Assembly: GCA_009711765.1 (NCBI GenBank) | Contig: VEND01000090.1 | Span: 1,065 to 65,064, forward strand | Source of the DNA: Bacillota bacterium | Lineage (GTDB): Bacteria > Bacillota > Clostridia > Tissierellales > MES13 | Reading direction: 5' to 3' | Length of the DNA: 64,000 nt | In this document: in pieces, positions 3,007 to 58,763 of the stretch | How the letters are laid out: each line of letters opens with the position of its first letter | Numbering within the stretch: position 1 is the first letter of the stretch | Translations under genes and position numbers: made by a program | The notes under the pieces: generated by a model | Database searches by the model: none | Seen by the model: the letters and a program-made list of their open reading frames with translations, nothing else | Told to the model about the DNA's origin: nothing

Positions 3007-4428
3007 TTGAATGATATATTTTATATAAGAGTTTTTAATAAAAGAAATAAAAAGGTATCTAGAGTACCTATTGAATATATAGTAACAATGGCTGTAGCAG
3101 CCCAGGCTCCTATTAAATTTCATGAAGAATTTTTAAAAGTGCAATCAATTATAGCTAGAACAATCCTTATTAAAAAGATAAAAGCCCTAGGGGGAAAAGG
3201 ATGCACTAAATATGATAGATGCGATATATGTGATGAAGGACACTGTATAAATATGGCCAGTGAAAAGTCACTAAAAGAAAAGTGGAAAGAAGACTATAAT
3301 AAAAATATGGAAATTATAAAAAGGGCAGTAAAATCCACTGAGGATTTAATTATAACTATGGATAATAAACCAATAGATGCAAGGTTTCATAATAGTTGTG
3401 GTGGTTCTACTGAAAATGCTGAGAATGTATTAGGTAATAAAGTATTATATTTAAGAAAGGTTTTATGTGATAATTGTGTGGATTCCCCTGATTGGGATAA
3501 AGAGAAGGTAATAAATATAAAAGATCTACAAGAGAAGTTAGGAGTTAAATTTCCTAAGTTAAATTACAAATTAGATGTAGATATCAAAGGTTTTATAGAA
3601 GATATAAAAAGGGATGAGCAAGGTAGAATCCAAAGTATGAAAATAGGTGATAAAGTTTTTAAAGGTATAGAGATAATGGATATTTTAAATCTTAAATCCA
3701 CAAAATTTAGTATGTCCCCTTTAACTATTAAAGTTAAATCTAGAGGAAGGGGAGATGGCTTAGGTTTATGTCAATGTGGGGCTAATGAAATGGCTAAAGA
3801 AGGCTTTTTATATGAGGATATAATAAATTATTACTATACAGGGGTTGAAATTAAAAAGGTTGAAAAGCCATGCATAAATAAGCCACTTCAGGGTAAGATA
3901 TTTATATTAGACCCAGGACATGGAGGAAGCGTTACAACCGATAATGTTGGAGTTAATGGTTTAAGAGAAAAGGATGTTGTACTTAAAATATGTAAGTTAC
4001 TGAAAAAATCATTAACTAAATTAGGAGCGACTATACATCTAACCCGGGATAGTGATATATACATTCCATTAAATAAAAGAGTTAATCTCGTAAATGATAT
4101 TAGGCCTGATTTTTTATTATCTATTCATCTTAACTACTTTCCTAATAGTTCCATAAAGGGTTGTGAGATTTATCATTTTAAAAATGATACTGACAGTTTT
4201 GCCCTAGGAAAATTTATAATAAACAATATAAAGGATTTAGATATTATAGCTAAGGGAGTTAGAAGTGCAGAATTTTTTATGCTCCGAGAATGCGGGGTAA
4301 GTAGTCTTCATATTGAGGTTGATTATTTAAGTAATCCTTTAGTGGAAGAAAAATTAAGAAGTGATGATTATTTAACTAAGATAACAAGTAAAATAACTGA
4401 AGGAATCCTAGAATTTTACGAATATTAA
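3007..4428 (+). CDS. SpoIID/LytB-like domain fused to N-acetylmuramoyl-L-alanine amidase (Amidase_3)
   Basis: TTG start after TAAGGAGG. SpoIID-type block: KVQSIIARTI...GHC...DARFHNSCGGSTENAENV. C-terminal Amidase_3 block: ILDPGHGG...REKDVVL...LLSIHLN...GCEIYH. Confidence 0.8.
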   Translation: MNDIFYIRVFNKRNKKVSRVPIEYIVTMAVAAQAPIKFHEEFLKVQSIIARTILIKKIKALGGKGCTKYDRCDICDEGHCINMASEKSLKEKWKEDYNKNMEIIKRAVKSTEDLIITMDNKPIDARFHNSCGGSTENAENVLGNKVLYLRKVLCDNCVDSPDWDKEKVINIKDLQEKLGVKFPKLNYKLDVDIKGFIEDIKRDEQGRIQSMKIGDKVFKGIEIMDILNLKSTKFSMSPLTIKVKSRGRGDGLGLCQCGANEMAKEGFLYEDIINYYYTGVEIKKVEKPCINKPLQGKIFILDPGHGGSVTTDNVGVNGLREKDVVLKICKLLKKSLTKLGATIHLTRDSDIYIPLNKRVNLVNDIRPDFLLSIHLNYFPNSSIKGCEIYHFKNDTDSFALGKFIINNIKDLDIIAKGVRSAEFFMLRECGVSSLHIEVDYLSNPLVEEKLRSDDYLTKITSKITEGILEFYEY

Positions 4429-44124: not shown

Positions 44125-44550
44125 ATGATAGTTACAGTTAGGATAGACGGAGAACAGCAAACCCCTGAGGGAGAAAAAAATAATATAGAGTTAGTAACAG
44201 AGGGAAAGTTTTATAAAAAGAAGGGAATATACTATATTATATATGAAGAAACTGAAGTATCAGGGATGGAAGGTACTACTACTACCCTTAAAATTAGGGA
44301 TGGAAAAGTATCGATGAAAAGATATGGCACTAATCAATCAAAACTTATATTTGAAAAGGGAGTTAAGCATAATACTAAATATAAAACAGACTTTGGAGAA
44401 ATGTTAATGGAGGTTATGACAAGTAAAATAGATATAGATTTAGATGAAAAGGGCACAGGAAGTCTATATTTAGACTATAGGCTTAATATCTCTAATTCAG
44501 TAGAGAGTCGTAATAAATTAAATTTAAAAATAACTCCTAAAAACAAATAA
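44125..44550 (+). CDS. DUF1934 (YwiB-like) beta-barrel protein
   Basis: 141 aa. The pattern VTEGKFYKKKG.YYI.YEE...TTTLKI.DGKV...R.G is typical of YwiB/DUF1934. Confidence 0.7.
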   Translation: MIVTVRIDGEQQTPEGEKNNIELVTEGKFYKKKGIYYIIYEETEVSGMEGTTTTLKIRDGKVSMKRYGTNQSKLIFEKGVKHNTKYKTDFGEMLMEVMTSKIDIDLDEKGTGSLYLDYRLNISNSVESRNKLNLKITPKNK

Positions 44551-44557
44551 TAAATTT

Positions 44558-44590
44558 AAATCAACCTTTAATAGGGTTGATTTTTTATAT
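44558..44590 (+). terminator. Rho-independent terminator
   Basis: TCAACC...GGTTGA stem plus T6. Confidence 0.7.
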
Positions 44591-44662
44591 AAACTTTTAA
44601 TATTATTTTTATAAAATGATATAATAAAAATAATAAATTATACTAAAGGGGAAAAGATTTTA

Positions 44663-46258
44663 ATGAAAAAAATCCAACTTAAGTTAAGAACAAAGATTAC
44701 TTTACTAATAATTATCGTAGTATTAGTATCTTTATTCTTTGGTGCATTTTTTATAAGTCAGTGGACAATAAGAAATGTTCAAAAAGAAGAGGAAACTAAT
44801 ATTATGGACAAGGCTAAAATAATAGCAAGTATGCCGAGTATAAAAAAGGCCTTAAATGAAAAAGATCCAAATAAAGATATACAAAAAATAGTAGAAGATT
44901 TTTTAAAATTAACAGAGACAGTGGAAGTAATTGTTGTTGCAGATATGGAAAGTATTAGATATGGTCATCCTAAACGGGATAGACTTGGGAAAAAATTTGT
45001 AGGTGGGGATGAAAAAGAGGTAATTAATAAAGGAAAATCCTATGTTTCAGAGGCTACTGGAACCCTTGGAAGGGAAATAAGAGCATTTACACCTATATAT
45101 TATAATAATGAACAGATAGGTTTTGTAATGGCAGGGACATTTACACAAACTATAAATGATACTAAAAAAGAAAGTTTAATAATTATAAGTAAAGGAACAT
45201 TAATTGGTTTAATTATAGGAATAATAGGGGCTTTTTTATTAGCAACAAATATTAAACATACTTTATTAGGATTAGAACCTGAGGAAATTTCAAAACTATA
45301 TGTAGAAAAAAATGGTATGTTATATGCAATACATGAAGGAATTATAGCCATTAATGAAAATGAAGAGATAACTTTAGTAAACGATTCAGCAATTGAAATG
45401 CTTCATATTAAAGAAAAGGATGTTTTAGGAAGAAAGGTTAGGGATGTATTTCCCACTAGTAAATTACCAAATGTTTTAGAATCCGGTAAAGCAGAATTTG
45501 ATAGAGAACAATTAATAAATGATACTATTATTATGACAAATAGAGTTCCTGTAAAATCAAAACAAGAAATCATAGGTGCTATAGCTACCTTTAGGGATAA
45601 AACAAAAATTACTAAGTTAGCTGAAGAAGTTACAGGTGTTAAGCAAATAGTAGAAGCTTTAAGGTCTAATACCCATGAATTTATGAATAAACTACATGTA
45701 ATTTTAGGATTGTTACACATTGAAGATTATGAGCATGCTAAAAAGTTTATTATAAGTGAAACTAAAAAACAGCAACAAATTTTAAGTTTAGTAATGAATA
45801 ATATAGAAGATAGTGCAGTGGCTGGTTTAATAATAGGTAAGTTTAGTAGGGCTAAGGAACTTGATATTAATATGAAAATATCAAAGGAAAGTAAATTATC
45901 AAAGCTAACGGGTCAAATAAAAAGTAATACATTAATTACTGTAATAGGAAATCTTTTAGAAAATTCCATGGAAGCTTTATTAAAAAGTGATAAAGAGGAT
46001 AAAAATGTGGAGTTATTAATAAAAGAAACCCCTGAAATTTTAAAAATTATTGTTACAGACAATGGTTGTGGTATTGATAAAGGTTCTATCCCTTTGGTAT
46101 TTAAAAGGGGATATTCAACAAAGGAAGGTAGTAGAGGAATAGGTCTTGATAATGTAAAAAATGTAGTAGAAAATTTAGGAGGAAATATTAAGGTTGAGTC
46201 AATTAAAAATGTGTCTACTAAGTTTATTGTAACTATTCCAAAGAGGGAGTGGAGTTAA
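44663..46258 (+). CDS. Sensor histidine kinase, DcuS/CitA/MalK family
   Basis: Two TM helices flank a periplasmic-type sensor domain. PAS domain. SpoOB-type H-box LRSNTHEFMNKLHVILGLL. HATPase blocks DNGCGI and GSRGIGL. Confidence 0.88.
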   Translation: MKKIQLKLRTKITLLIIIVVLVSLFFGAFFISQWTIRNVQKEEETNIMDKAKIIASMPSIKKALNEKDPNKDIQKIVEDFLKLTETVEVIVVADMESIRYGHPKRDRLGKKFVGGDEKEVINKGKSYVSEATGTLGREIRAFTPIYYNNEQIGFVMAGTFTQTINDTKKESLIIISKGTLIGLIIGIIGAFLLATNIKHTLLGLEPEEISKLYVEKNGMLYAIHEGIIAINENEEITLVNDSAIEMLHIKEKDVLGRKVRDVFPTSKLPNVLESGKAEFDREQLINDTIIMTNRVPVKSKQEIIGAIATFRDKTKITKLAEEVTGVKQIVEALRSNTHEFMNKLHVILGLLHIEDYEHAKKFIISETKKQQQILSLVMNNIEDSAVAGLIIGKFSRAKELDINMKISKESKLSKLTGQIKSNTLITVIGNLLENSMEALLKSDKEDKNVELLIKETPEILKIIVTDNGCGIDKGSIPLVFKRGYSTKEGSRGIGLDNVKNVVENLGGNIKVESIKNVSTKFIVTIPKREWS

Positions 46259-46259
46259 T

Positions 46260-46937
46260 ATGATAAATGTTTTAATAGTTGAAGATGACCCAATGGTTTC
46301 AGAATTAAATAAAAGATATGTAGAAAGTATTGAAGGGTTTAAGGTTATAAAAAGTGTTAGTAATGGTCAAGATGCACTTAAAATTTTAAATAAAAAAAGA
46401 ATAGATTTAGTTATATTAGATATATATATGCCTAAAGTTGACGGGATTAGTTTATTAAAGGAAATGAGAAAAAGATCTATCATGAGTGATGTTATATTAG
46501 TAACTGCAGCAAAGGAGGCAAAAAATATAGATGCTGTATTAAAATTAGGGGCAGTGGATTATTTAATAAAACCCTTTGAATTTGAAAGATTACAAAACTC
46601 ATTAAAAAAATATCTACAAAGGCATAGGCTTTTAAATGATAAAGAGGCATTTAAACAGGAGGATATTGATAAACTAACTGTAAAATATAAGACAAATGGA
46701 AAAGAAGAAATTAAAAAAGGACTTCACAAACATACCCTTGATATGATTAGAAGGTATATGAGTAAAAATAAAGATATCTATTTATCCAGTGATGAAATAG
46801 CTGAAAAGTTAGATTTTTCTAAAGTAACTATTAGAAGATACCTTGAGTATTTAGAGGAGATTGGTGAAATAAAATTACAAATAAATTACGGTGGTATAGG
46901 AAGACCAGCACATCTATATAAGTATAACAAAAAATAG
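46260..46937 (+). CDS. Response regulator, CitB/DcuR/MalR family
   Basis: REC domain (VLIVEDDPMV, LVILDIYMPKVDG) plus a C-terminal wHTH. Confidence 0.88.
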   Translation: MINVLIVEDDPMVSELNKRYVESIEGFKVIKSVSNGQDALKILNKKRIDLVILDIYMPKVDGISLLKEMRKRSIMSDVILVTAAKEAKNIDAVLKLGAVDYLIKPFEFERLQNSLKKYLQRHRLLNDKEAFKQEDIDKLTVKYKTNGKEEIKKGLHKHTLDMIRRYMSKNKDIYLSSDEIAEKLDFSKVTIRRYLEYLEEIGEIKLQINYGGIGRPAHLYKYNKK

Positions 46938-46971
46938 TTGTTAAAAAAATGTCATAATTTATTTTAATTTA

Positions 46972-47008
46972 TAAACATTTAGAATATATTCTAAATGTTT
47001 ATTTTTTT
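46972..47008 (+). terminator. Rho-independent terminator
   Basis: AAACATTTAGAATA / TATTCTAAATGTTT perfect stem plus a T-run. Confidence 0.85.
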
Positions 47009-47061
47009 GGGGTTTAAGAATATTATTTAATTAAACATTAATACTTAGGAGATGATAAAAA

Positions 47062-48234
47062 ATGGATTATAAGGATTTGAGTTTAAAAATGCATAAAGAA
47101 AAGATAGGAAAGATAGAAATCAAATCTAAAGTCAAAGTAAAGGATAAAGATGATTTATCAACAGCTTATACACCAGGGGTAGCTGAACCCTGTAGAAAAA
47201 TCCATGAAGATAAAGAAAGCGTTTACAAATATACATCTAAAGGAAATTTAGTGGCTGTTGTAAGTGATGGAACTGCAGTATTAGGATTAGGGGATATTGG
47301 AGCTTTAGCCTCAATGCCTGTAATGGAGGGAAAGAGTATACTTTTTAAAGAGTTTGGTAATGTGGATGCTTTTCCTATTTGCCTAGATACAAAGGATGTT
47401 GATGAATTAGTAAAGACAATAAAATTAATGGCTCCAACCTTTGGAGGTATTAACTTAGAAGATATTTCAGCTCCAAGGTGTTTTGAAATTGAAGAAAGAT
47501 TAAAAAAGGAACTTGATATACCTGTTTTTCATGACGATCAACATGGAACAGCAATAGTTGTTTCAGCTGGACTTATTAATGCTTTAAAACTAGTAAATAA
47601 GGATTTTAAAGATACAAAAATTGTAGTAAATGGTGCAGGATCAGCCGGGGTTGCCATTACTAAAATGCTAATTAATCTAGGGGCAGGTGATATATTACTT
47701 TGTGATAAAACAGGAATAATTTATGAAGGGGCTTCAAATAATGATGAAATAAAAGAAGCTATGGCAAAGATAACTAATAAAGAAAATAAAAAGGGATCAT
47801 TAAAGGAGGCTTTAGTTGATGCAGATATTTTCATAGGAGTATCAGCAGGAAATATTGTTAGTAAAGAAATGGTTAAAAGCATGAAAAAAGATGCTATTGT
47901 ATTTGCAATGGCAAATCCTACACCAGAGATAATGCCAAGTTTAGCATTAGAAGCAGGAGCAAGGGTTGTTGGATCAGGTAGATCTGATTTTTCAAATCAA
48001 GTAAACAATGTATTAGCATTCCCTGGAGTATTTAGAGGAGCATTAGATGTACGGGCAACAGAAATTAATGAAGAAATGAAACTAGCAGCAGCCTATGCCA
48101 TTGCAAATAGTATTAAGAAAGAAGATTTAAAAGAAGATTATGTAATACCAGATCCATTTGATTTAAAAGTAGTATCAAGTATTTCTAAAGCAGTTTCTTT
48201 AGCTGCTAAAAAAACAAATGTAGCTAGAATTTAA
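47062..48234 (+). CDS. NAD(P)-dependent malic enzyme (short, ~390-aa type)
   Basis: LSTAYTPGVAEPC, DGTAVLGLGDIG, FHDDQHGTA and NGAGSAGVA. Confidence 0.9.
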   Translation: MDYKDLSLKMHKEKIGKIEIKSKVKVKDKDDLSTAYTPGVAEPCRKIHEDKESVYKYTSKGNLVAVVSDGTAVLGLGDIGALASMPVMEGKSILFKEFGNVDAFPICLDTKDVDELVKTIKLMAPTFGGINLEDISAPRCFEIEERLKKELDIPVFHDDQHGTAIVVSAGLINALKLVNKDFKDTKIVVNGAGSAGVAITKMLINLGAGDILLCDKTGIIYEGASNNDEIKEAMAKITNKENKKGSLKEALVDADIFIGVSAGNIVSKEMVKSMKKDAIVFAMANPTPEIMPSLALEAGARVVGSGRSDFSNQVNNVLAFPGVFRGALDVRATEINEEMKLAAAYAIANSIKKEDLKEDYVIPDPFDLKVVSSISKAVSLAAKKTNVARI

Positions 48235-48255
48235 AATTTTAAGGGGGAAAAAATT

Positions 48256-49551
48256 ATGTCAACTGAAACTTTGAAAAAGAATAGTTATAAAATTATGGGG
48301 CTTCCTATATCAATATTTATAATTTTAACTGCAGTTGTTTCAATAGCTGTGTATATGGGTGCACTTCCTACAGGAATGATAGGAGCTTTTCCACTTATGA
48401 TGATAATTGGTGCTATTTTAAATCAGTTAGGTAATAAGCTACCTATTATAAAGGATTATTTAGGTGGAGGACCTATTGTAGTTATATTTGGTTCAGCAGC
48501 TTTATTTACCTATGGAGTAATACCTAAGGCATCGGGAGAGATTGTTGTTAATTTTATGAAAAGTGAAGGTTTTTTAAGTTTTTATATCGCAGCACTTATA
48601 ACAGGTAGTATTTTAGGAATGGATAGAAAGTTATTAATAAAAGCAGCAGTAAGATATTTACCCGCTATAATTGGAGGAGTTATTGTAGCTTTAGGATTAA
48701 CTGGTTTAGTTGGAACATTTATAGGCTATGGAGCTAAGGAGGCAATTTTATATGTAGCACTTCCTATAATGGGAGGAGGCATGGGAGCAGGTGCAGTTCC
48801 TTTAAGCCAGATATTTGGGACAACCCTTAATGTTGACCCTTCTGTGATAATGTCAAAGATGGTACCTGCCCTTGCATTAGGAAATGCAATAGCAATAGTA
48901 GTAGCTGGAGCATTAAATAGGATAGGAAAGTCTAAAAAGAATTTAACAGGTGAAGGTAAATTACTAAAAAATCAAGAAAATTCTAAAGAAGAAGTAGAGG
49001 AAAAGGTAACTGAAGAAATTAAATATAACCTATTAGGTATGGGACTTTTATTTTCAACTACATTCTTTGTATGGGGGAAAATCTTAGCTAAATTTATTCC
49101 AATCCATTCCTATGCATTAATGATTATAACGGTGGCTATAGTAAAGGTATTAGGTATATTACCTAGAAAATATGAAGTCGGTGCTTATCAATGGTTTAGA
49201 TTTATAATGGTTAACTTAACACCAGCTTTATTAGTTGGTATAGGTGTAGCTTATACAAACTTAAATCAAGTTATAGATGCATTTACATTACAATATATAG
49301 TATTAGTTGCAACTGCAATAATAGGATCAGTTATTGGTTCAGGAATTATAGGAAGTTTACTTGGGTTTTATCCGATAGAGTCAGCAATAACAGCAGGATT
49401 ATGTATGGCTAATATGGGAGGTACTGGAGATGTAGCAGTATTATCTGCTTCAAAGAGAATGGAATTAATGCCATTTGCTCAAATTTCATCCCGTATAGGT
49501 GGAGCATTTATGCTGATATTAGCTACAGGATTATTAAAAATATTTATGTAA
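48256..49551 (+). CDS. 2-hydroxycarboxylate transporter family (MaeN/CitS/MleP-like malate or citrate symporter)
   Basis: 431-aa polytopic protein with a C-terminal MANMGGTGDVAVL loop. Sits with a malic enzyme and a CitA/CitB-type two-component system. Confidence 0.75.
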   Translation: MSTETLKKNSYKIMGLPISIFIILTAVVSIAVYMGALPTGMIGAFPLMMIIGAILNQLGNKLPIIKDYLGGGPIVVIFGSAALFTYGVIPKASGEIVVNFMKSEGFLSFYIAALITGSILGMDRKLLIKAAVRYLPAIIGGVIVALGLTGLVGTFIGYGAKEAILYVALPIMGGGMGAGAVPLSQIFGTTLNVDPSVIMSKMVPALALGNAIAIVVAGALNRIGKSKKNLTGEGKLLKNQENSKEEVEEKVTEEIKYNLLGMGLLFSTTFFVWGKILAKFIPIHSYALMIITVAIVKVLGILPRKYEVGAYQWFRFIMVNLTPALLVGIGVAYTNLNQVIDAFTLQYIVLVATAIIGSVIGSGIIGSLLGFYPIESAITAGLCMANMGGTGDVAVLSASKRMELMPFAQISSRIGGAFMLILATGLLKIFM

Positions 49552-49556
49552 GTTAT

Positions 49557-49590
49557 TAAGAGGGCAGATTTTCTGCTCTCTTATTTTTTA
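49557..49590 (+). terminator. Rho-independent terminator
   Basis: AAGAGGGCAG / CTGCTCTCTT stem plus ATTTTTT. Confidence 0.8.
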
Positions 49591-49596
49591 TAAAAA

Positions 49597-49625
49597 TTTT
49601 CTATTAAAATAAATTATGGTATAAT
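49597..49625 (+). promoter_or_regulatory. Candidate sigma-A promoter of the sigma-54 activator gene
   Basis: Extended -10 TGgTATAAT (49617..49625). Weak -35 TTTTCT (49597..49602). Confidence 0.45.
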
Positions 49626-49646
49626 TATGAAAAAGGCACTATCGGG

Positions 49647-49683
49647 TGCCTAAATTTAAGCACATGGTGCCAAAATTTAAGCA
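49647..49683 (+). promoter_or_regulatory. Two tandem copies of a 16-17 bp motif (candidate activator binding sites)
   Basis: TGCCTAAATTTAAGCA (49647..49662) and TGCCAAAATTTAAGCA (49668..49683), 21 bp centre to centre. A third, inverted copy lies at 51116..51132. Confidence 0.5.
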
Positions 49684-49696
49684 GTGGGGTGATGGG

Positions 49697-51079
49697 ATGA
49701 AGGATCTTTTTTTTAGAGAGAATATATTTGAGATACTTGATCATATAGATGAAGGGATACACATTATAGATAGTCAAGGTAAGATAGTATATTATAATAA
49801 GCTTGCCCAAAGTTTAGATGAAATTGAGGGTGAAAAGGCTGTAGGAAGACATATCCTAGAGATATATCCATCCCTTAGTTATAAGTCTAGTACATTACTT
49901 AAAGCAGTTAATTTAGGAAAGGCTATATTTAATAAAGAACAAACATTTACAAATTATAAAGGGGATAAAATAACTACAATAAATACATCTATTCCTATAA
50001 AGTCTAATGGAAAGATAAAAGGGGCTTTAGAAATATCAAAGGATATAACTAAAGTTAAAGAGCTTTCTGAAAGGATAGTAGATTTACAAAAAGAGCTTTA
50101 TAAAAGTGATAGTGAAAAACCAAAAAAGAATAAATCTTCAGCTAAATTTACCTTTGTAGATATCATAGGACAATCTAAAGAGATGCTTGATTTAAAATCA
50201 TTAGCTTTAAAGGCATCCCAAAGTCCATCACCAGTTCTTATATATGGAGAAACAGGAACAGGTAAGGAATTATTTGTTCAATCAATTCATAATTCGAGTA
50301 AAAGGAAAAATAAGCCCTTTATAGCCCAAAACTGTGCAGCCCTTCCTGCAAATCTTTTAGAAGGGATATTATTTGGTACAGTTAAAGGGGGATTTACAGG
50401 AGCAGAGGATAGATTAGGTCTATTTGAACTAGCAAATGGAGGGACTTTATTTTTAGATGAGATAAATTCTATGCCCTTAGAATTACAGGCAAAATTATTA
50501 AGGGTATTACAGGATGGTTCAATAAGAAGGATAGGCTCTACTAAAACAAGGGATGTTGATGTAAAAATAATAACTGCCCTTAATATATCCCCTGAAGAAG
50601 CTTTAAAAGAAAAGTTAATTAGAAGGGATCTTTATTTTAGATTAAATGTAATTAATTTAAGATTACCCCCATTAAGGGAAAGAAAGGATGATATCCCTTT
50701 ATTAGTCGATTATTTTTTAGATAAGTTTAATAAAAAATTTAAAATAAATGTTAAAAAAGTCTCTAAGGAAGTTATGAATGTATTTTTAAATTACCAATGG
50801 CCAGGTAATGTAAGGGAGTTAGAACATATCCTAGAGGGCATAGTTTCTATTTTAGATATTGATGAAATTAAGTTAAAGCATTTACCTAAACATTTATCTA
50901 ATACAACTAAATATAATTTAGATATTAAGCCTTTAAATGAGTCTATAACTGAACTTGAAAAGGATATTATAAAAAGGGCCCTAAGCTTAAGTAACTTTAA
51001 TATAACCCATGCAGCAGAACTTATAAAAATTCCTAGACAAACCCTTCAATATAAAATAAAAAAATATAATTTAAAGTAA
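49697..51079 (+). CDS. Sigma-54-dependent transcriptional activator (PAS - AAA+ - Fis HTH)
   Basis: Likely start is ATG 49697 (MKDLFF) after GGGGTGATGGG. Walker A GETGTGKE. GGFTGA loop. Walker B LFLDEI. WPGNVRELEH. C-terminal HTH HAAELIKIPRQTLQYKIKKY. Confidence 0.9.
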   Translation: MKDLFFRENIFEILDHIDEGIHIIDSQGKIVYYNKLAQSLDEIEGEKAVGRHILEIYPSLSYKSSTLLKAVNLGKAIFNKEQTFTNYKGDKITTINTSIPIKSNGKIKGALEISKDITKVKELSERIVDLQKELYKSDSEKPKKNKSSAKFTFVDIIGQSKEMLDLKSLALKASQSPSPVLIYGETGTGKELFVQSIHNSSKRKNKPFIAQNCAALPANLLEGILFGTVKGGFTGAEDRLGLFELANGGTLFLDEINSMPLELQAKLLRVLQDGSIRRIGSTKTRDVDVKIITALNISPEEALKEKLIRRDLYFRLNVINLRLPPLRERKDDIPLLVDYFLDKFNKKFKINVKKVSKEVMNVFLNYQWPGNVRELEHILEGIVSILDIDEIKLKHLPKHLSNTTKYNLDIKPLNESITELEKDIIKRALSLSNFNITHAAELIKIPRQTLQYKIKKYNLK

Positions 51080-51106
51080 AAGGGAAGTAAATCTTCCCTT
51101 TTATTA
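51078..51106 (+). terminator. Rho-independent terminator
   Basis: AAAGGGAAG-taaat-CTTCCCTTT stem followed by T-rich sequence. Confidence 0.8.
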
Positions 51107-51115
51107 TCATATTAC

Positions 51116-51132
51116 TGCTTAAAATTTGGCAC
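51116..51132 (+). promoter_or_regulatory. Inverted third copy of the TGCC-N-AAGCA motif; candidate upstream activating sequence
   Basis: TGCTTAAAATTTGGCAC. Its reverse complement GTGCCAAATTTTAAGCA differs at one central position from 49667..49683. It lies about 150 bp upstream of the -24/-12 element. Confidence 0.5.
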
Positions 51133-51283
51133 TTATAAGTTTTTTTATAAATAGAAACCTTCCCTTTAAATTGTTAATAACTTTTCATATTTAAATTTAA
51201 ATTTCTAAAATCCAGGTATTTACTGAATTTAAAACTATAAACATAAAGTTACATTAAATATAATTTTTCAACACAAACTATAG

Positions 51284-51300
51284 TGGTATGTAAGTTGCAT
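51284..51300 (+). promoter_or_regulatory. Sigma-54 (-24/-12) promoter of the lysine fermentation operon
   Basis: TGGTAT-gtaag-TTGCAT matches the TGGCAC-N5-TTGCW spacing. It lies about 80 nt upstream of the kdd ATG. Confidence 0.75.
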
Positions 51301-51380
51301 CTATATATAGGTGGATATTATCTGTTAGTATGTGCTAACAGTTATTTAAAAAATATATTTAATAAGGGGAGGCGTTTAAA

Positions 51381-52418
51381 ATGAAAAAAGGGTGTCCATT
51401 TGGAACTCACAGAGTAATTGAACCAAAGGGGAAGTTACCACAACCTGCAACAAAAATTGATAATGATATGGGAATCTATAGTAATGAAATTTTAATTGAT
51501 GTACAAACATTAAATATAGATTCTGCAAGTTTTACACAAATTAAGAATCAAGCAGGTGGAGATGTAGAAAAAATTAAAGAAATAATGAATTCTATAGTTG
51601 ATGAAAGGGGTAAACATCAAAATCCTGTAACAGGCTCAGGGGGAATGCTTATAGGAACTATAGAAAAAATAGGCCCAGATTTAAAGGGAAAAATAGATTT
51701 AAAAGAAGGAGATAAGATAGCTACATTAGTTTCTTTATCATTAACTCCTTTAAGAATAGATGAAATATTAGAAGTTAGAAAGGATATTGACCAGGTAGAT
51801 ATTAAAGGAAAAGCAATACTATTTGAAAGTGGTATATATGCAGTACTTCCTACAGACTTACCAGAAAATTTAGCACTATCAGTATTAGATGTAGCAGGAG
51901 CACCGGCACAGGCTGCTAAGTTAGTTAGTCCTGGAGATAATGTATTAGTAATAGGTGGTGCAGGTAAATCAGGAATGCTTTGTTTATATGAAGCTAGAAA
52001 AAGAGTTGGAGTTACAGGAAAGGTTATTTGTTTAGGACATAGTGAAAAGAGTCTTGAAAGGGTTAGAAAAGCAGACCTTGCAGATATCTACATAAAAGCA
52101 GATGCAACTAATGCAACAGAAGTTATGGAAAAGGTAAGTAAAGAAACAAACGGAGAAATGGCAGATGTAACAATTAATACTGTAAATGTTGATAATACTG
52201 AAATGTCTAGTATCTTAGCTACTAAGGATGATGGATTAATTTATTTCTTTAGTATGGCTACTAACTTTACAAAGGCAGCCTTAGGAGCTGAGGGGGTAGG
52301 AAGAGATACAAAAATGATTATAGGAAATGGATATACTAAAGACCATTCAGAAATAGCTTTACAAATAATGAGAGAAAGTAAAGAGTTAAGAAAGATATAT
52401 GAAGATCTTTATGCATAA
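51381..52418 (+). CDS. kdd: L-erythro-3,5-diaminohexanoate dehydrogenase
   Basis: 345 aa. N-terminal GCPFGTHRVIEPKG.LPQPA and LIDVQTLNIDSASFTQI, as I recall for Kdd. Rossmann fold VIGGAGKSG. Operon context with kamA/kamDE. Confidence 0.8.
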   Translation: MKKGCPFGTHRVIEPKGKLPQPATKIDNDMGIYSNEILIDVQTLNIDSASFTQIKNQAGGDVEKIKEIMNSIVDERGKHQNPVTGSGGMLIGTIEKIGPDLKGKIDLKEGDKIATLVSLSLTPLRIDEILEVRKDIDQVDIKGKAILFESGIYAVLPTDLPENLALSVLDVAGAPAQAAKLVSPGDNVLVIGGAGKSGMLCLYEARKRVGVTGKVICLGHSEKSLERVRKADLADIYIKADATNATEVMEKVSKETNGEMADVTINTVNVDNTEMSSILATKDDGLIYFFSMATNFTKAALGAEGVGRDTKMIIGNGYTKDHSEIALQIMRESKELRKIYEDLYA

Positions 52419-52454
52419 ATAGGTGTATATAAAAAAATTAGAGGAGGAGTCATT

Positions 52455-53702
52455 TTGAAATCTTTTAAAGACATTGACTTATGGAAGGATGTATCTGAAA
52501 GTGAGTGGAACGATTGGAAATGGCAATTAAAAAATAGAATTACAGATGTTAAAGAATTAGAAAGTATAATTAATTTAGATGATAAAGAGAAAAAAGAAAT
52601 ATCTGAAACCCTTAATAAATTTAGAATGGGTATAACACCCTATTATGCATCATTAATGGATAAAGATGATAAAAATTGTCCTATAAGAATGCAAGCTGTA
52701 CCAACTATAATGGAAACCCATTTAGGTTCTGCTGATATGGAAGATCCATTACATGAAGATGAAGATTCTCCAGTACCAGGTTTAACCCATAGATATCCAG
52801 ATAGAGTTTTACTACTTATAACAGATCAATGTTCAATGTATTGTAGACATTGTACAAGAAGAAGATTTGCAGGGGGCAAAGATTCAGAAATGCCCTTTGA
52901 TAGAATAGAAAAGGCTATAGAATATATAAAAAATACTCCTCAAGTAAGGGATGTTTTATTATCAGGAGGAGATGCATTATTAGTTTCTGATGAGAAGTTA
53001 GAAAGCATTATAAAAAGATTAAGAGAAATTGATCATGTTGAAGTAATTAGAATAGGTTCAAGAGTTCCTGTTGTAATGCCTCAAAGAATAACTGATAATT
53101 TAGTTAATATGCTTAAAAAATATCATCCAGTTTGGTTAAATACTCACTTTAATCATCCAAAGGAGATAACTGAAGAATCCGTTGAAGCTGTAAGAAAATT
53201 AGCTGATGCTGGTATTCCTTTAGGTAATCAATCAGTGCTTTTAAGGGGAGTAAATGATTGTGTTCATATAATGAGAAAACTTATGCATGAGCTTGTTAAG
53301 ATAAGAATTAGACCTTATTATATCTATCAGTGTGACTTATCAATGGGAATTGAACACTTTAGAACGAAAGTAGCTAAGGGTGTAGAAATAATAGAAGGAC
53401 TTAGAGGACATACATCAGGTTATGCAGTTCCAACCTTTGTTGTTGATGCTCCCGGTGGTGGAGGTAAAACACCAGTTGGTCCTAATTATGTAATATCTCA
53501 ATCACCAAATAAAATAGTTTTAAGAAACTATGAAGGAGTTATTACAACCTATGAAGAACCAAATAATACAGAACATGAATGTAGTTGTGAAGTTTGCAAA
53601 AGTGAAAGGGAAGATAAATTAAATGGAGTAGCAGGATTATTAGAGGGAAATAAAACTGCTATAGAGCCAAAGGACCTTGAAAGAAAGAAAAGAGGTAAGT
53701 AA
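52455..53702 (+). CDS. kamA: L-lysine 2,3-aminomutase (radical SAM/PLP)
   Basis: TTG start after GAGGAGGAG. CSMYCRHCTRR radical-SAM cluster motif, RDVLLSGGDAL and PYYIYQCDL. Confidence 0.93.
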   Translation: MKSFKDIDLWKDVSESEWNDWKWQLKNRITDVKELESIINLDDKEKKEISETLNKFRMGITPYYASLMDKDDKNCPIRMQAVPTIMETHLGSADMEDPLHEDEDSPVPGLTHRYPDRVLLLITDQCSMYCRHCTRRRFAGGKDSEMPFDRIEKAIEYIKNTPQVRDVLLSGGDALLVSDEKLESIIKRLREIDHVEVIRIGSRVPVVMPQRITDNLVNMLKKYHPVWLNTHFNHPKEITEESVEAVRKLADAGIPLGNQSVLLRGVNDCVHIMRKLMHELVKIRIRPYYIYQCDLSMGIEHFRTKVAKGVEIIEGLRGHTSGYAVPTFVVDAPGGGGKTPVGPNYVISQSPNKIVLRNYEGVITTYEEPNNTEHECSCEVCKSEREDKLNGVAGLLEGNKTAIEPKDLERKKRGK

Positions 53703-53723
53703 GTTTTCTGAAAGGAGTTTAAT

Positions 53724-54755
53724 ATGGCATTGATTGATTTAATATATGAAAATTATAAAAAAATATCAATAGTAGGAATGGCTAAAAACTCAGGTAAGAC
53801 AGTTACACTTAATCAAATTATAGAAGAGGCTTTTAATGAAGATATTATAATAGGTATAACATCCACAGGAAGAGACGGGGAAAGACAGGATGTTGTAACT
53901 AATACTGAAAAGCCAACTATATATGTCACAGAGGGCGTATTAATAGCAACAACAACTGAAAACCTTAGTATGGGGGATGCTAAGGTGGAGGTTATAAGTG
54001 TAACTGATTACAGGACTCCTTTAGGAAATATTGTTATTGGTCGTGTTAAAGATGATGGATATGTACAAATAGCAGGACCTCAGACTAATAAGGGGATAAA
54101 GGAAGTATCTGATTTAATGCTTGAATTAGGGGCAGAACTTGTAATTGTTGATGGTTCTTTAAATAGAATTTCATCAGCATCCCCTTTAGTAACTGAGGCA
54201 ACTATCCTTGCAACAGGGGCTGTTGTAAGTAGAAATATGAATAAAGTTATTAAAGAAACAATACATACAACTAACCTTTTTAGTTTAGAAGAAGTTAATA
54301 AAGCCCATAAATCTTTAATAGAAGATATAATGGATAATAAAAAGGTTGCTATAGTAAATAAGGATTTAACTGTTAAATATCTAGATATAAAAACAGCTAT
54401 AAATTCAGGAAGTATAATAGCATCTAATATAGATGATGATACTGAATATGTTGTTTTTCCTGGAGCTTTAGTTAAAAAAACAGTTGAAGATATTATTAAA
54501 AGTAATAAAAGGTATAAAGATATTAAGCTTATTGCAATGGATGGTACTAAAATTTTTATTAAATCTAAAGACTGGCTTAAATTTAGAAGATATGGTTTAG
54601 AGGTTAATGTTTTATATAGTATAAAAACAGTAGCAGTTACAATAAATCCTTACTCACCAACAGGGTATTATTTTAATCCAAAGGAATTTTTAGAAAAAAC
54701 AAGAAGCTTTTTAAAGGATGTTGATGTGTTTGATGTAATGCTAGGAGGTGAATAG
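53724..54755 (+). CDS. P-loop protein conserved in lysine-fermentation operons; putative 5,6-aminomutase reactivase subunit (KamB-like)
   Basis: N-terminal P-loop GMAKNSGKT. Located between kamA and the MutS-like ATPase. Confidence 0.55.
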   Translation: MALIDLIYENYKKISIVGMAKNSGKTVTLNQIIEEAFNEDIIIGITSTGRDGERQDVVTNTEKPTIYVTEGVLIATTTENLSMGDAKVEVISVTDYRTPLGNIVIGRVKDDGYVQIAGPQTNKGIKEVSDLMLELGAELVIVDGSLNRISSASPLVTEATILATGAVVSRNMNKVIKETIHTTNLFSLEEVNKAHKSLIEDIMDNKKVAIVNKDLTVKYLDIKTAINSGSIIASNIDDDTEYVVFPGALVKKTVEDIIKSNKRYKDIKLIAMDGTKIFIKSKDWLKFRRYGLEVNVLYSIKTVAVTINPYSPTGYYFNPKEFLEKTRSFLKDVDVFDVMLGGE

Positions 54756-54756
54756 T

Positions 54757-56430
54757 GTGAAATTTCTAGATAAAGATACTAAAAGTATAATAGGTTTTGA
54801 TTATGTCTTAGAAAATATTGAGGTTGTAACACCCTTTGGTAAGGAATATAAGGGTAAGTTAAAACCATTTATGCCTGGGGAAGAAAAGTTACTTAAAAAT
54901 GAGTTTGAAAGAATAGAAAAAATATTAAGGCTAATAGATGAAGATAAACTTACATTTCTTAAGCTAAATACATTATTCACCGATATAAAGGATTTAAGAA
55001 AATCCTTAAAAAGAACTGTTAATGGAGATACTTTAACAGTAGTAGAACTCTTTGAGATTAAAACATTTATATTACTTTTAAGAAAGATTAATGAAAAGAT
55101 AACTTCCCTTAATTGGGAGGTACCTAAAAGGCTAAAAGTAGAGCCAATAAATGAATTAGAAAAGTTATTTGATCCAAAAAATAGAGGGATTAAAACATTT
55201 TATATATACGATGAATACTCTAAAACCCTTAAAGAAATAAGGGATGATAAAAGAAAACTTTCTAAGGATATAAAAAGGGAAAACAAAAAGATTAAAGAAA
55301 AAATAAGGAAAGATTTAAAGTTAAACGTTAAACCTAATGGAGAAGTTATAATACCTAAGGATGAAAAAAACTTTATAGAAATGGTCGATAACTATTCCTT
55401 ACTTCAATATAGTTCTGAAACATATATGAATAAAAAATATATTATAAAGCCTACAGAACTTATAAGGATTTTAACTAAACAGCTTGAAAAGTTAAAGGAG
55501 ATGGAAGAAGAGGAAGAATATAAAGTAAGGACTTCCCTTAGTAAAAAAATAGCTTCCTTTAATGAGAGTATACTAAAAAACATGAAGGCTATAGGTAATT
55601 TAGATTTAACCATTGCAAAGGCTTATTTAGCACTAGATATAGATGGAATAAAACCAGATATAATAAGTGATAAGAAACTTAAAATTAAAGAGGGTAGGCA
55701 TATAGAAGTTGAAGATGCCTTAAAGGAAAGTGGGAGAGATTTTGTAGCTATAGATTTAGATTTAGAAAATGGAGTAACTTGTATTACAGGAGCAAACATG
55801 GGGGGAAAAACGGTTAGTTTAAAGCTTGTGGCTTTAAACGCTTCAATGGCGCAATATGGTTTATATGTGCCATGTAAGTATATGAGTACAGGATTATTTG
55901 ACTTTTTATCAGTTTCAATAGGGGACTATCAATCGACAGATATGGGACTTAGCACCTTCGGTGGGGAAATTAAAAAGGTCCAAAGGGCAATGAAAAGAAG
56001 TGATGAGTACGGACTTATATTAATAGATGAACTTGCCAATGGAACTAATCCCCAGGAAGGTAGTGCAATTTCCATGGCCATAGTTAATTTTCTAAAAAAG
56101 AAACCATCGATGAGTGTGATAACTACCCATTATGATAATGTATCGACTATACCGGGTATAAAACATCTACAGGTTATAGGACTTGAGAATGTCGATTATG
56201 AAAGCTTAGAAGAAAAACTTAAAAAAGAAAGTGACTATGGAATGGAAATGATAGCTAAATATATGGATTATAGACTTAAAGAGGTTCATAATCTAGGGCA
56301 GGTTCCAAGGGATGCTATAAATATAGCAAAGCTTATGGGACTTGATGAAGAAATTTTAGAAGATGCAGAAAAAATGCTTGAAAGCTTTTTTATAAATGAA
56401 TTATCCTTAGCAGGAAGTGAAAATCAGTAA
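54757..56430 (+). CDS. MutS-domain-V ATPase; putative 5,6-aminomutase reactivase ATPase (KamC-like)
   Basis: Likely GTG 54757 after AGGAGG (the ORF is open from 54748). MutS ATPase blocks: TGANMGGKTV, LILIDELANGTNP and TTHY. No mismatch-binding domains. Confidence 0.65.
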   Translation: MKFLDKDTKSIIGFDYVLENIEVVTPFGKEYKGKLKPFMPGEEKLLKNEFERIEKILRLIDEDKLTFLKLNTLFTDIKDLRKSLKRTVNGDTLTVVELFEIKTFILLLRKINEKITSLNWEVPKRLKVEPINELEKLFDPKNRGIKTFYIYDEYSKTLKEIRDDKRKLSKDIKRENKKIKEKIRKDLKLNVKPNGEVIIPKDEKNFIEMVDNYSLLQYSSETYMNKKYIIKPTELIRILTKQLEKLKEMEEEEEYKVRTSLSKKIASFNESILKNMKAIGNLDLTIAKAYLALDIDGIKPDIISDKKLKIKEGRHIEVEDALKESGRDFVAIDLDLENGVTCITGANMGGKTVSLKLVALNASMAQYGLYVPCKYMSTGLFDFLSVSIGDYQSTDMGLSTFGGEIKKVQRAMKRSDEYGLILIDELANGTNPQEGSAISMAIVNFLKKKPSMSVITTHYDNVSTIPGIKHLQVIGLENVDYESLEEKLKKESDYGMEMIAKYMDYRLKEVHNLGQVPRDAINIAKLMGLDEEILEDAEKMLESFFINELSLAGSENQ

Positions 56431-56451
56431 ATAATATAAGGAGGGATTAAT

Positions 56452-58008
56452 ATGGAAAGTAAGCTAAATCTTGATCCTAAGATTATAGATAGTGCAAGGG
56501 ATGCAGCAAGAAATATAGCAGAAGATGTTCAAGAATATATAGATAGACATACAACAGTATCTGTTGAAAGAACAGTGGCAAGATTATTAGGCATAGATGG
56601 TGTTGATGAAATAGAAAGACCCTTACCTAATATAGTAGTTGACAATGTTAAAGAAGGGGGAGGATTAAATTTAGGTGTTGCTTATTGGATAGGTAATGCA
56701 ATGCTTGAAACTAATGAAGATCCTCAAACTATCGCTGAAAAGGTAAGTATAGGAGAAATTGATTTAACTAAAGTACCTTTAAAGGAAGATGAAAAAATAA
56801 AATTAGAGGTAGAAAAAATAGCAAAGAAAACAGTTGAAACAATAAGAAAGAATAAAGAAAAAAGGGATGAATACATAAATACCCTTGGGGATGGAAATAA
56901 ACCTAATCTTTATGTAATAGTAGCAACTGGAAATATATATGAAGATATTATCCAAGCGAAAGCAGCGGCAAAGCAAGGGGCAGATATAATAGCAGTTATT
57001 AGAACTACTGCACAGAGTTTACTTGATTATGTTCCCTATGGTCCGACTACAGAAGGTTTTGGAGGAACATATGCAACCCAAGAAAACTTTAGATTAATGA
57101 GAGAAGCATTAGATGAGGTAGGTAAGGAAGTAGGAAGATATATTAAACTTTGTAATTATTGTTCAGGATTATGTATGCCTGAAATAGCAGCAATGGGAGC
57201 ATTAGAAAGACTTGATGTAATGCTTAATGATGCTTTATATGGAATATTATTTAGAGATATAAATATGAAAAGAACACTTATAGATCAATATTTTTCTAGG
57301 ATAATTAATGGATATGGTGGAGTAATTATAAATACAGGGGAAGATAATTATCTAACAACTGCAGATGCAATTGAAGAAGCCCATACTGTATTAGCTTCAC
57401 AACTTATGAATGAACAATTTGCCCTTATAGCGGGTATACCGGAAGAGCAAATGGGACTTGGCCATGCCTTTGAGATGGATCCTAAGATTGAAAATGGTTT
57501 CTTACTAGAACTTGCCCAAGCTCAAATGGCTAGAGAAATATTTCCTAATGCACCACTAAAATATATGCCTCCAACTAAATTTATGACAGGTAATATATTT
57601 AAAGGACATCTTCAGGATGCTTTATTTAATCTTATATCCATATGGACAAATCAAGGTGTTCAGTTATTAGGTATGCCTACAGAAGCAATCCATACACCCC
57701 ATTTACAGGATAGAATGCTTTCTATAGAAAATGCTAAGTATATATTTAATAATGCTAAAGATTTAGGTGAAGAGATAACATTTAAAAAGGATGGAATAAT
57801 TCAAACTAGAGCGAAGGAAGTATTAGATAATGCAGATGAATTACTTAAAGATATTGAAAAGGAAGGAATATTCTCTACAATAGAAAAGGGTAAATTTGCA
57901 GGAGTAAAAAGACCAAGAGATGGTGGAAAGGGTCTTGAAGGTGTTATAAGTAAGGATGATAAATATTATAATCCATTTATCAGATTGATGCTTGGAGGTG
58001 AAAAGTAA
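56452..58008 (+). CDS. kamD: D-lysine/beta-lysine 5,6-aminomutase alpha subunit
   Basis: 518-aa TIM-barrel-type subunit immediately upstream of, and overlapping, the B12-binding beta subunit. Lysine operon context. Confidence 0.85.
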   Translation: MESKLNLDPKIIDSARDAARNIAEDVQEYIDRHTTVSVERTVARLLGIDGVDEIERPLPNIVVDNVKEGGGLNLGVAYWIGNAMLETNEDPQTIAEKVSIGEIDLTKVPLKEDEKIKLEVEKIAKKTVETIRKNKEKRDEYINTLGDGNKPNLYVIVATGNIYEDIIQAKAAAKQGADIIAVIRTTAQSLLDYVPYGPTTEGFGGTYATQENFRLMREALDEVGKEVGRYIKLCNYCSGLCMPEIAAMGALERLDVMLNDALYGILFRDINMKRTLIDQYFSRIINGYGGVIINTGEDNYLTTADAIEEAHTVLASQLMNEQFALIAGIPEEQMGLGHAFEMDPKIENGFLLELAQAQMAREIFPNAPLKYMPPTKFMTGNIFKGHLQDALFNLISIWTNQGVQLLGMPTEAIHTPHLQDRMLSIENAKYIFNNAKDLGEEITFKKDGIIQTRAKEVLDNADELLKDIEKEGIFSTIEKGKFAGVKRPRDGGKGLEGVISKDDKYYNPFIRLMLGGEK

Positions 58009-58763
58009 TGGCATTAGAAAAGGTTGATTTAACAAAGGTTAAACCCTATGGTGATACTTTAAATGATGGTATGATGCAATTTTCTTTTACATTACCTATT
58101 CCCCATGGAGATGAAGCTTTAGAAGCTGCTAGGATACTTGCTAAAAAAATGGGACTTGAAGAACCAGAGGTTGTATATTCAGAGGACTTAGGTATAGATT
58201 ATACTTTCTTTGTAGTATATGGAAGATGTAAACATACAGTAGATTATACAAAGATAGAGGTACCTAAGGTTGATATAGAATCCATGGATAAATACGGGGT
58301 TGAAGATTATATTAAAGAAAATATAAAAAGAGAGATAACAATTATCGGAGCATGTACTGGGACTGATGCCCATACAGTTGGTATAGATGCCATTATGAAT
58401 ATGAAAGGCTTTGATGGTCATTATGGCCTTGAAAGATATAAAATGATTAATGCTATTAATATGGGAAGTCAGGTTCCAAATGAAGAGTTAGTTGCAAAGG
58501 CAATAGAGGAAGATGCCGATGCAATACTGATTTCTCAGATAGTAACCCAGAAAAATGTACACATTCCTAATATGACTGAGTTAGTTGAGCTTTTAGAAGC
58601 TGAGGGTATTAGAGAAAAAATAGTTCTTGCCTGTGGAGGACCAAGAATCTCCCATGAACTAGCTAAGGAACTTGGTTACGATGCTGGTTTTACATCGGGA
58701 AGCTATGCTAATGATGTAGCAAGTTTCATAGTAACTGAGATGGTAAAAAGAAGTTTAATATAA
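58008..58763 (+). CDS. kamE: D-lysine/beta-lysine 5,6-aminomutase beta subunit (B12-binding)
   Basis: Cobalamin DxHxxG motif GTDAHTVGID with a Rossmann-like B12 domain. Start overlaps the kamD stop (ATGA-type junction at 58008). Confidence 0.88.
   Translation: MALEKVDLTKVKPYGDTLNDGMMQFSFTLPIPHGDEALEAARILAKKMGLEEPEVVYSEDLGIDYTFFVVYGRCKHTVDYTKIEVPKVDIESMDKYGVEDYIKENIKREITIIGACTGTDAHTVGIDAIMNMKGFDGHYGLERYKMINAINMGSQVPNEELVAKAIEEDADAILISQIVTQKNVHIPNMTELVELLEAEGIREKIVLACGGPRISHELAKELGYDAGFTSGSYANDVASFIVTEMVKRSLI

Follow-up and report, generated by a model that had tools for sequence, protein, structure and literature searches.

The regulatory system described here lies in a 64,000-nt stretch of a Bacillota genome (GCA_009711765.1, contig VEND01000090.1, positions 1,065 to 65,064; hereafter the window, in whose numbering coordinates are given unless another locus is named). 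It consists of a sigma-54 activator gene, the lysine-fermentation operon kdd-kamABCDE that follows it, and three copies of a 16-bp dyad, TGCC-N8-GGCA. Judged by the available part of its description, KamR/PkamA of Bacillus thuringiensis is the nearest system that has been characterised. In strain HD73, KamR (HD73_2539) is a PAS-containing sigma-54 activator encoded beside kamA (HD73_2540), and PkamA has the -24/-12 promoter TTGGCATAACTATTGCT, located 38 bp before the start codon, and needs both sigL and KamR (Zhang et al. 2014, J Bacteriol 196:2934, as summarised in PMC4428206). A binding site for KamR is not described in the available part of that summary. As far as the same part allows a comparison, the activator gene of the window likewise lies upstream of, and co-directional with, a -24/-12 promoter and kdd-kamA. 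The targets differ, being the full anaerobic operon kdd-kamABCDE in the window and kamA-yokU-yozE in B. thuringiensis, and the sporulation sigma-K input would be unexpected in the window system.

RocR of Bacillus subtilis resembles the window activator in its PAS / AAA+ / Fis-type HTH (helix-turn-helix) architecture and in serving an amino-acid catabolic sigma-54 (SigL) operon (arginine, ornithine). It acts at palindromic, A/T-centred enhancers, and negative autoregulation has been reported for it. The window system differs in its targets, which are lysine genes and not roc, and in its half-sites, TGCC/GGCA. Homologues of the window activator are labelled 'arginine utilization regulatory protein' by several sources, but the 'RocR' label on them is automatic annotation.

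NtrC (at glnAp1 and glnLp), PspF and XylR (at Pr) activate a sigma-54 promoter and repress a sigma-70 promoter where their sites overlap or follow the -10 element. The same combination of distant sigma-54 activation and self-repression at a sigma-70 promoter is proposed here for the window activator. The repressing sites of NtrC, PspF and XylR are usually the enhancer of the neighbouring promoter, whereas in the window the activator gene has two sites to itself, 1.45 kb from the enhancer. PrdR (NF041552), likewise a sigma-54 activator and in charge of a clostridial pathway of amino-acid fermentation, is the best NCBIfam match of the window activator; membership was rejected, as the score of 420.6 bits (profile positions 135-577 only) is below the equivalog cut-off of 795. 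No NCBIfam equivalog was found for the window activator.

Regarding OrdR and other amino-acid activators of Clostridiales, the gene adjoins a Stickland or fermentation operon and the enhancer lies 100-250 bp upstream of TTGGCAT-N5-TTGCT; the OrdR site, GAGCAAAATATTTTGCTC, is also an A/T-centred dyad (PMC6615313). The catalogue of Nie, Dong and Yang (2019; 39 groups) has no kam, kdd or lysine entry, and the half-sites of the window differ from every one of its motif classes; the TGCC...GGCA site is not in its Table S3, where the sole match is an unrelated AorR site (PMC6615313). A 2025 survey goes no further than noting an enrichment of lysine 2,3-aminomutase among predicted sigma-54 targets in Bacilli. 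Beyond the kamA case of B. thuringiensis, no description of the transcriptional control of lysine fermentation was found.

The circuit is of the ordinary, textbook enhancer-binding-protein kind. The operator sequence TGCC-N8-GGCA appears to be new, as no prior description was found in the literature searched, and so does the predicted control, in much of the Bacillota, of the anaerobic lysine-fermentation operon by a KamR-like activator with sigma-54; the same layout occurs in about 60 other genomes of that phylum. Here we present a concrete operator sequence and promoter layout for the predicted regulator of this pathway, which contributes butyrate and ammonia from gut and sediment Bacillota. 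The motif can be used for regulon mapping in genomes that carry the activator (e.g., at kce, kal, transporters and lysine decarboxylase), and the system could serve as a compact, probably lysine-responsive sigma-54 switch.

Dyads and promoters at the activator gene and kdd

We put the probability at about three in four that the dyads are the activator's own DNA sites, site 3 acting as the enhancer of the kdd-kam operon and sites 1 and 2 as an operator on the activator promoter. All three are unstranded and share the generalised pattern TGCYNAAWWTTNRGCA, with the consensus TGCC-N-AAWWTT-N-GGCA. Site 1 (TGCCTAAATTTAAGCA, 49647..49662) lies in the leader/promoter region of the activator gene, with its centre 42 bp before the ATG. 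Site 2 (TGCCAAAATTTAAGCA, 49668..49683) ends 13 bp before the ATG; it starts 21 bp after the start of site 1, so that the two lie on the same face of the helix. Site 3 (TGCTTAAAATTTGGCA, 51116..51131) is centred 160 bp before the -24 element of the kdd promoter, and the -24/-12 element starts 152 bp past the end of its 17-bp form (TGCTTAAAATTTGGCAC, 51116-51132).

A previous reading of the window from its sequence alone (the sequence-only reading) had named these three copies, and all of them were found again, both in the sequence and by an independent repeat search. Unprompted, this search returned sites 1 and 2 as a direct repeat of 18 nt with 94% identity and 21-bp spacing (D8), sites 2 and 3 as a pair over 19 nt with 95% complementarity (I5), sites 1 and 3 as a pair over 17 nt with 88% (I14), and site 1 as a palindrome in itself (I24). 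Site 3 had been described as an inverted copy; its location stands, but the orientation label carries little meaning because the motif is a dyad. With at most one mismatch allowed, TGCYNAAWWTTNRGCA matches three times in the 64-kb window, each time perfectly and each time here, compared with 0.44 matches expected; three or more matches were reached in 2 of 100 shuffles.

The kdd promoter, TGGTAT-GTAAG-TTGCA (TGGTATGTAAGTTGCA, 51284..51299, plus strand), has GG at -24 and GC at -12 separated by 10 nt, the arrangement of a sigma-54 promoter, and is the only perfect match to TGGYAYNNNNNTTGCW (TGGYAY-N5-TTGCW) in the window. The ATG of kdd follows 83 bp past the -12 GC. The element TGGTAT-GTAAG-TTGCAT (51284-51300), proposed earlier as the promoter ahead of kdd, is thus present and without a second perfect match in the window. 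TTGGCAC within site 3 was considered as a further -24 element and rejected, the GC being missing at the -12 spacing.

The activator gene (49697..51079, plus strand) encodes a protein of 460 aa in which Pfam recognises PAS_4 (residues 14-121), Sigma54_activat (PF00158; residues 156-321, E = 1e-62), AAA_lid_14 and HTH_8 (residues 417-457), in line with its earlier reading as a sigma-54 activator. The translation contains the Walker A motif GETGTGKE, the Walker B motif LFLDEI, the loop GGFTGA and a Fis-type HTH with the recognition helix PRQTLQYK. An AAA+ domain with both Walker motifs, a GAFTGA-type loop, a C-terminal Fis-type HTH and an N-terminal sensor are the marks of bacterial enhancer-binding proteins, and they support assignment to the NtrC/NifA class; ATP-dependent promoter opening is predicted for the protein. 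Among the 80 related loci introduced below, the loop reads GSFTGA in 40, GGFTGA in 23 and GSYTGA in 6, with the F/Y-T-G-A core kept.

The list of open reading frames (ORFs) also holds a GTG-started frame from 49646 (MPKFKHMVPKFKQ...), which would translate the dyad sites. This extension is an artefact, as had been suspected, because the deposited protein (P0001, 100% identity) has 460 aa and matches the start at 49697, and because many activator orthologues align from residue 1.

An extended -10 element, TGgTATAAT, is found at 49617..49625 (plus strand), where the sequence-only reading had located it; on reading the sequence it is predicted to be a sigma-70-type promoter of the activator gene, with a poor -35 region. 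None of the loci compared has a sigma-54 promoter in the 300 bp that precede the activator gene, and the activator is therefore made from another type of promoter. In the other loci, hexamers resembling a -10 element, often TGnTATAAT or TATACT, are most frequent 5-14 bp upstream of the first dyad, which places the dyads at or just after the start of transcription, i.e., in the position of a repressing operator.

A GGCAC half-site lies between the -10 hexamer of the window and site 1. Together with the GTGCC at the left end of site 1, this GGCAC (49635-49639) makes up an inverted repeat (AGGCAC-TATCGG-GTGCCT, 49634-49651), and the GGCAC-N-GTGCC arrangement is also present in Brassicibacter (L081, 2436-2453) and Caloranaerobacter (L082, 2438-2456). 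Third sites that are half conserved are seen in L001 and L009; L010 has a similar one that went unscored. The 16 bp concerned (AATTATGAAAAAGGCA, 49623..49638, unstranded), tentatively called site 0, keep only the right half-site GGCA and may represent a degenerate third operator that overlaps the -10/start region.

Conservation of the dyads across the Bacillota

The comparison set comprised 80 loci (one genome per species, relatives at 47-64% protein identity) from Tissierellia, Clostridia, Peptostreptococcaceae, Bacilli and Negativicutes, which together with the window make 81; the loci were scanned for the dyad with at most two mismatches. Brassicibacter mesophilus (L081) and Caloranaerobacter azorensis (L082), both at 70% protein identity, were added later and share the layout of the window. 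Three gene orders were distinguished by tblastn: the activator followed by kdd-kamA-kamB (most loci), kdd divergent from the activator (about ten loci, including Sedimentibacter metagenome-assembled genomes (MAGs)), and the activator followed by kamA (Bacillaceae and two Brevibacillus loci).

A dyad is present 20-70 bp before the activator ATG in 66 of the 81 loci. The 110 bp before the ATG hold 11.8 dyads per kb and the 170 bp after the activator stop codon 3.45 per kb, versus 0.12 per kb elsewhere (approximately 95-fold and 28-fold enrichment, respectively). A dyad within 170 bp after the stop codon was found in 43 of 80 loci; in others it lies upstream of the divergent kdd. Two upstream dyads occur in 33 of 67 kam-linked loci, and adjacent upstream dyads are most often 21 bp apart (19 of 39 pairs), with 31 of the 39 pairs at 20-22 bp. 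Regarding the association with lysine genes, an upstream dyad accompanies 60 of 67 kam-linked activators, compared with 6 of 14 unlinked homologues (Fisher p = 3e-4).

The promoter side is conserved as well. Of 67 loci, 65 have TGGCAY-N5-TTGCW with at most one mismatch, and almost always with none, in front of kdd, kamA or kamD; in most of them 36-90 bp separate it from the start codon. The dyad centre mostly lies 58-210 bp upstream of the -24 element. Dyad symmetry, a position about 60-250 bp upstream of -24 and co-occurrence with the activator gene across genomes are the properties of an upstream activating sequence (UAS).

In the divergent loci L015, L018, L020, L023 and L026, two sites are found at the activator and one at kdd, and the two dyads at the activator ATG are kept even where another gene lies between. 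Because these sites keep within 20-70 bp of the ATG even where kdd has the divergent orientation and lies at a distance of up to about 1.5 kb, the upstream sites are tied to the expression of the activator itself. The motif thus tracks the activator at both positions named in the sequence-only reading, across Tissierellia, Clostridia, Bacilli and Negativicutes, and the interpretation given there, a UAS combined with autoregulation, is supported by strong phylogenetic footprinting.

The activators linked to kamA in Bacillaceae, taken as a proxy for orthology to HD73_2539, are 48-53% identical to the window protein over the full length; most of these loci have a dyad before the activator gene and about half also have one after it. 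Two Bacilli show the dyad at a different target: in Bacillus norwichensis (L042, 5365-7141) and Siminovitchia fortis (L047, 5392-7167), a dyad and a sigma-54 promoter precede genes for an Orn/Lys/Arg decarboxylase and an amino-acid permease (identified by Pfam on the L042 proteins, and in L047 via the near-identical N-terminal sequence). Judged by these gene families, the regulator family appears to be employed there for another route of lysine use, and this target fits a lysine-related signal. In Sporomusa and Pelosinus (L062 and L078), the activator gene has no sites of its own and lies inside an operon, kdd-kamB-activator-kamD-kamE-thioesterase-BKACE/kce, with three dyads before kdd and three more after kce (L062, 1530-1640 and 9131-9310; L078, 1542-1633 and 9203-9306); a -24/-12 element follows the post-kce cluster in L062. 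An activator encoded in the operon whose promoter carries the dyads implies positive autoregulation in these genomes.

Regarding the protein side, the recognition helix PRQTLQYK is invariant among the kam-linked proteins in the HTH alignment, and for this reason no specificity residue emerged when HTH residues were compared with the presence of T or C at position 1 of the half-site.

Two minor observations concern the compared loci. The block ACGAACRTT is conserved just 5' of the first upstream dyad in L012, L015, L018, L020, L023, L024 and L026, all of the divergent layout (Sedimentibacter and related MAGs); it could reflect shared ancestry or the site of another protein. In Caloranaerobacter azorensis, a repeat of about 190 bp with about 90% identity is present in both intergenic regions that flank the activator gene (L082, ~2205-2400 and ~3985-4185). 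It puts about 470 bp between the enhancer and the sigma-54 promoter and could be a small intergenic element of mobile or repetitive nature.

Proposed circuit and competing explanations

In the favoured scheme, a dimer of the activator would bind site 3 (51116-51131) and seed the active oligomer, which would loop over about 160 bp to RNA polymerase-sigma-54 parked on TGGTAT-N5-TTGCA (51284-51299); ATP hydrolysis would then open the promoter, and kdd-kamABCDE would be transcribed. We infer both the binding and the sigma-54 dependence from the anatomy of the locus and its conservation across genomes. Sites 1 and 2 (49647-49683) lie between the extended -10 element and the ribosome-binding site, and their occupancy would lower transcription of the activator gene; site 0 is perhaps bound too, which would limit activator synthesis. 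The sign of this autoregulation is most likely negative, judging from position only. The PAS domain probably senses lysine or an intermediate of the pathway.

Several points weigh against this scheme. The activator promoter is a predicted extended -10 element without a -35 region; it is not listed by a simple two-hexamer scan, because no -35 hexamer with at least 4/6 matches is present. The distance from the -10 hexamer to site 1 in the window is 21 bp, beyond the 5-14 bp usual elsewhere. An RpoN box (ARRTVAKYR) was not found in the six-frame translation of the window, to which this search was confined. The homologues L029, L033, L061 and L076 have an identical recognition helix and no dyad at these positions. 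Only a single dyad is present at the target promoter, and the evidence for every dyad-carrying member of the family is comparative in kind. The statistic within the window is post hoc, because the sites themselves served to derive the generalised pattern.

The recurrence of the '2 + 1' site count in co-directional and divergent layouts would also be accounted for if sites 1 and 2 were a remote part of the enhancer, joined to site 3 by looping, or if they stimulated the activator's own promoter. Proteins of this class can work from enhancers kilobases away, and in L062 and L078, where the in-operon activator is without such sites, each target promoter has a cluster of three dyads. This explanation is nevertheless unlikely: the upstream sites are fixed relative to the activator ATG and the -10 element, not to the kdd promoter, from which they are about 0.5 to 1.5 kb away, sometimes with a gene between, and a location at or after the -10 element is typical of repression. 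Moreover, single-dyad enhancers suffice for other members of the class, e.g., NifA. The same site count could also mean that a hexamer is assembled from three DNA-bound dimers, two at the activator promoter and one at the target, an idea that must be called quite unlikely. If true, the 1.4-kb activator gene would be looped out, and one complex would both shut the activator promoter and fire the lysine operon.

The link between the activator and the dyads is one that we infer here, and the dyad is missing beside some homologues whose recognition helix is identical; the dyads might thus be bound by a different regulator encoded elsewhere, such as a lysine-responsive repressor. This is very unlikely, given that the dyad is found together with the activator gene in three gene layouts and in four Bacillota classes, accompanies the activator to the decarboxylase-permease pair in Bacilli, and is spaced from -24/-12 promoters as an enhancer would be. 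Furthermore, no dyad accompanies the homologues whose recognition helices diverge (L049, L052, L057 and L080).

We regard it as highly improbable that the palindromes are RNA elements, i.e., leader hairpins or the terminator of the activator gene, instead of protein-binding DNA. Such a role is suggested by L041, L044, L059, L063, L066 and L071, where the dyad after the stop codon reads CGCC-N8-GGCG, is followed directly by a T-run and looks like a small intrinsic terminator; the dyad of this Fusibacter-/Acidaminobacter-type may, from its sequence, double as activator terminator and operon enhancer, as a lineage-specific overlap. However, the window has a separate hairpin (51077-51103) before site 3, and L081 has a separate terminator after its site. 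The half-sites (T/C)GCC and GGC(A/G) are conserved as letters rather than as pairing, and complementarity between the variable positions 5 and 12 is seen in 55 sites, compared with 49 expected if they were independent. With its A/T-rich centre and fixed 8-bp spacing, the dyad would form only a weak 4-bp G-C stem, and identical sites upstream of the divergent kdd lie outside the 3' end of any transcript.

The pattern given in the sequence-only reading is not distinctive (7 matches in the window at up to three mismatches versus 4.0 expected), which would point to a chance resemblance among A/T-rich sequences of an A/T-rich genome; this explanation is effectively refuted by the three perfect dyads and by their positional enrichment over the 81 loci.

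Gene content and minor features of the locus

The target operon kdd-kamA-kamB-kamC-kamD-kamE occupies 51381..58763 on the plus strand. NCBIfam equivalogs were found for kdd (51381-52418; KDD, 277.8 bits, cut-off 200), kamB (53724-54755; KamB, 417 bits, cut-off 210) and kamC (54748-56430; KamC, 627.5 bits, cut-off 300). The product of kamA (52455-53702) is a lysine 2,3-aminomutase by Pfam (LAM_C with Radical_SAM), and both 5,6-aminomutase subunits, for kamD (56452-58008) and kamE (58008-58763), are recognised by Pfam as well (Lys-AminoMut_A; OAM_dimer with B12-binding). A family or equivalog match therefore exists for each of the enzymes kdd, kamA, kamBC and kamDE, and the earlier naming of the genes 3' of the activator as a lysine-fermentation operon is upheld. 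In the window, this operon lacks kce and kal.

Upstream of the activator gene, a 2-hydroxycarboxylate transporter gene (48256-49551; 2HCT family by Pfam) ends in a clear intrinsic terminator (49557..49583, plus strand), a stem-loop of 12 pairs, 5 of them G-C, that is followed by a T-run in the terminator scan and by TTTTTTAT in the sequence; the activator gene is therefore a transcription unit of its own. The region 44125-49551 begins with a 141-aa ORF (44125-44550), and between it and the activator gene lie genes for a sensor kinase, a response regulator, malic enzyme and the transporter, the kinase and regulator being judged from their sequence only. In L081 and L082, a DUF1934 gene and an argS-like gene lie directly 5' of the activator gene, and for this reason the malate-type cassette in the window may be a lineage-specific insertion. 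The ORF 44125-44550 may match the DUF1934 gene of these relatives, by position only.

A hairpin adjoins the activator stop codon (AAAAGGGAAG-TAAATC-TTCCCTTTT, 51077..51103, plus strand). The terminator scan lists this stem on the minus strand (11 pairs), the T-run on the plus strand being under the scan threshold, and from its sequence it is a probable weak terminator. In the predicted kdd leader, the hairpin 51322-51341 (CTGTTAG-TATGTG-CTAACAG, followed by TTATTT) was listed as terminator-like; its candidacy as an attenuator was rejected, as it folds no better than shuffled sequence (z = -0.68) and no conserved equivalent was seen in those leaders of other loci that were inspected. A cre-like motif, TGWAANCGNTNWCA, between enhancer and promoter was dropped, since it occurs in four loci only, the window not among them. 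Finally, AAATCTTCCCTTT (51089-51101), which is the 3' arm of the post-activator hairpin, recurs 66 bp downstream as AAACCTTCCCTTT (51155-51167; D15), in the interval that separates enhancer and promoter; we propose no function for this repeat.

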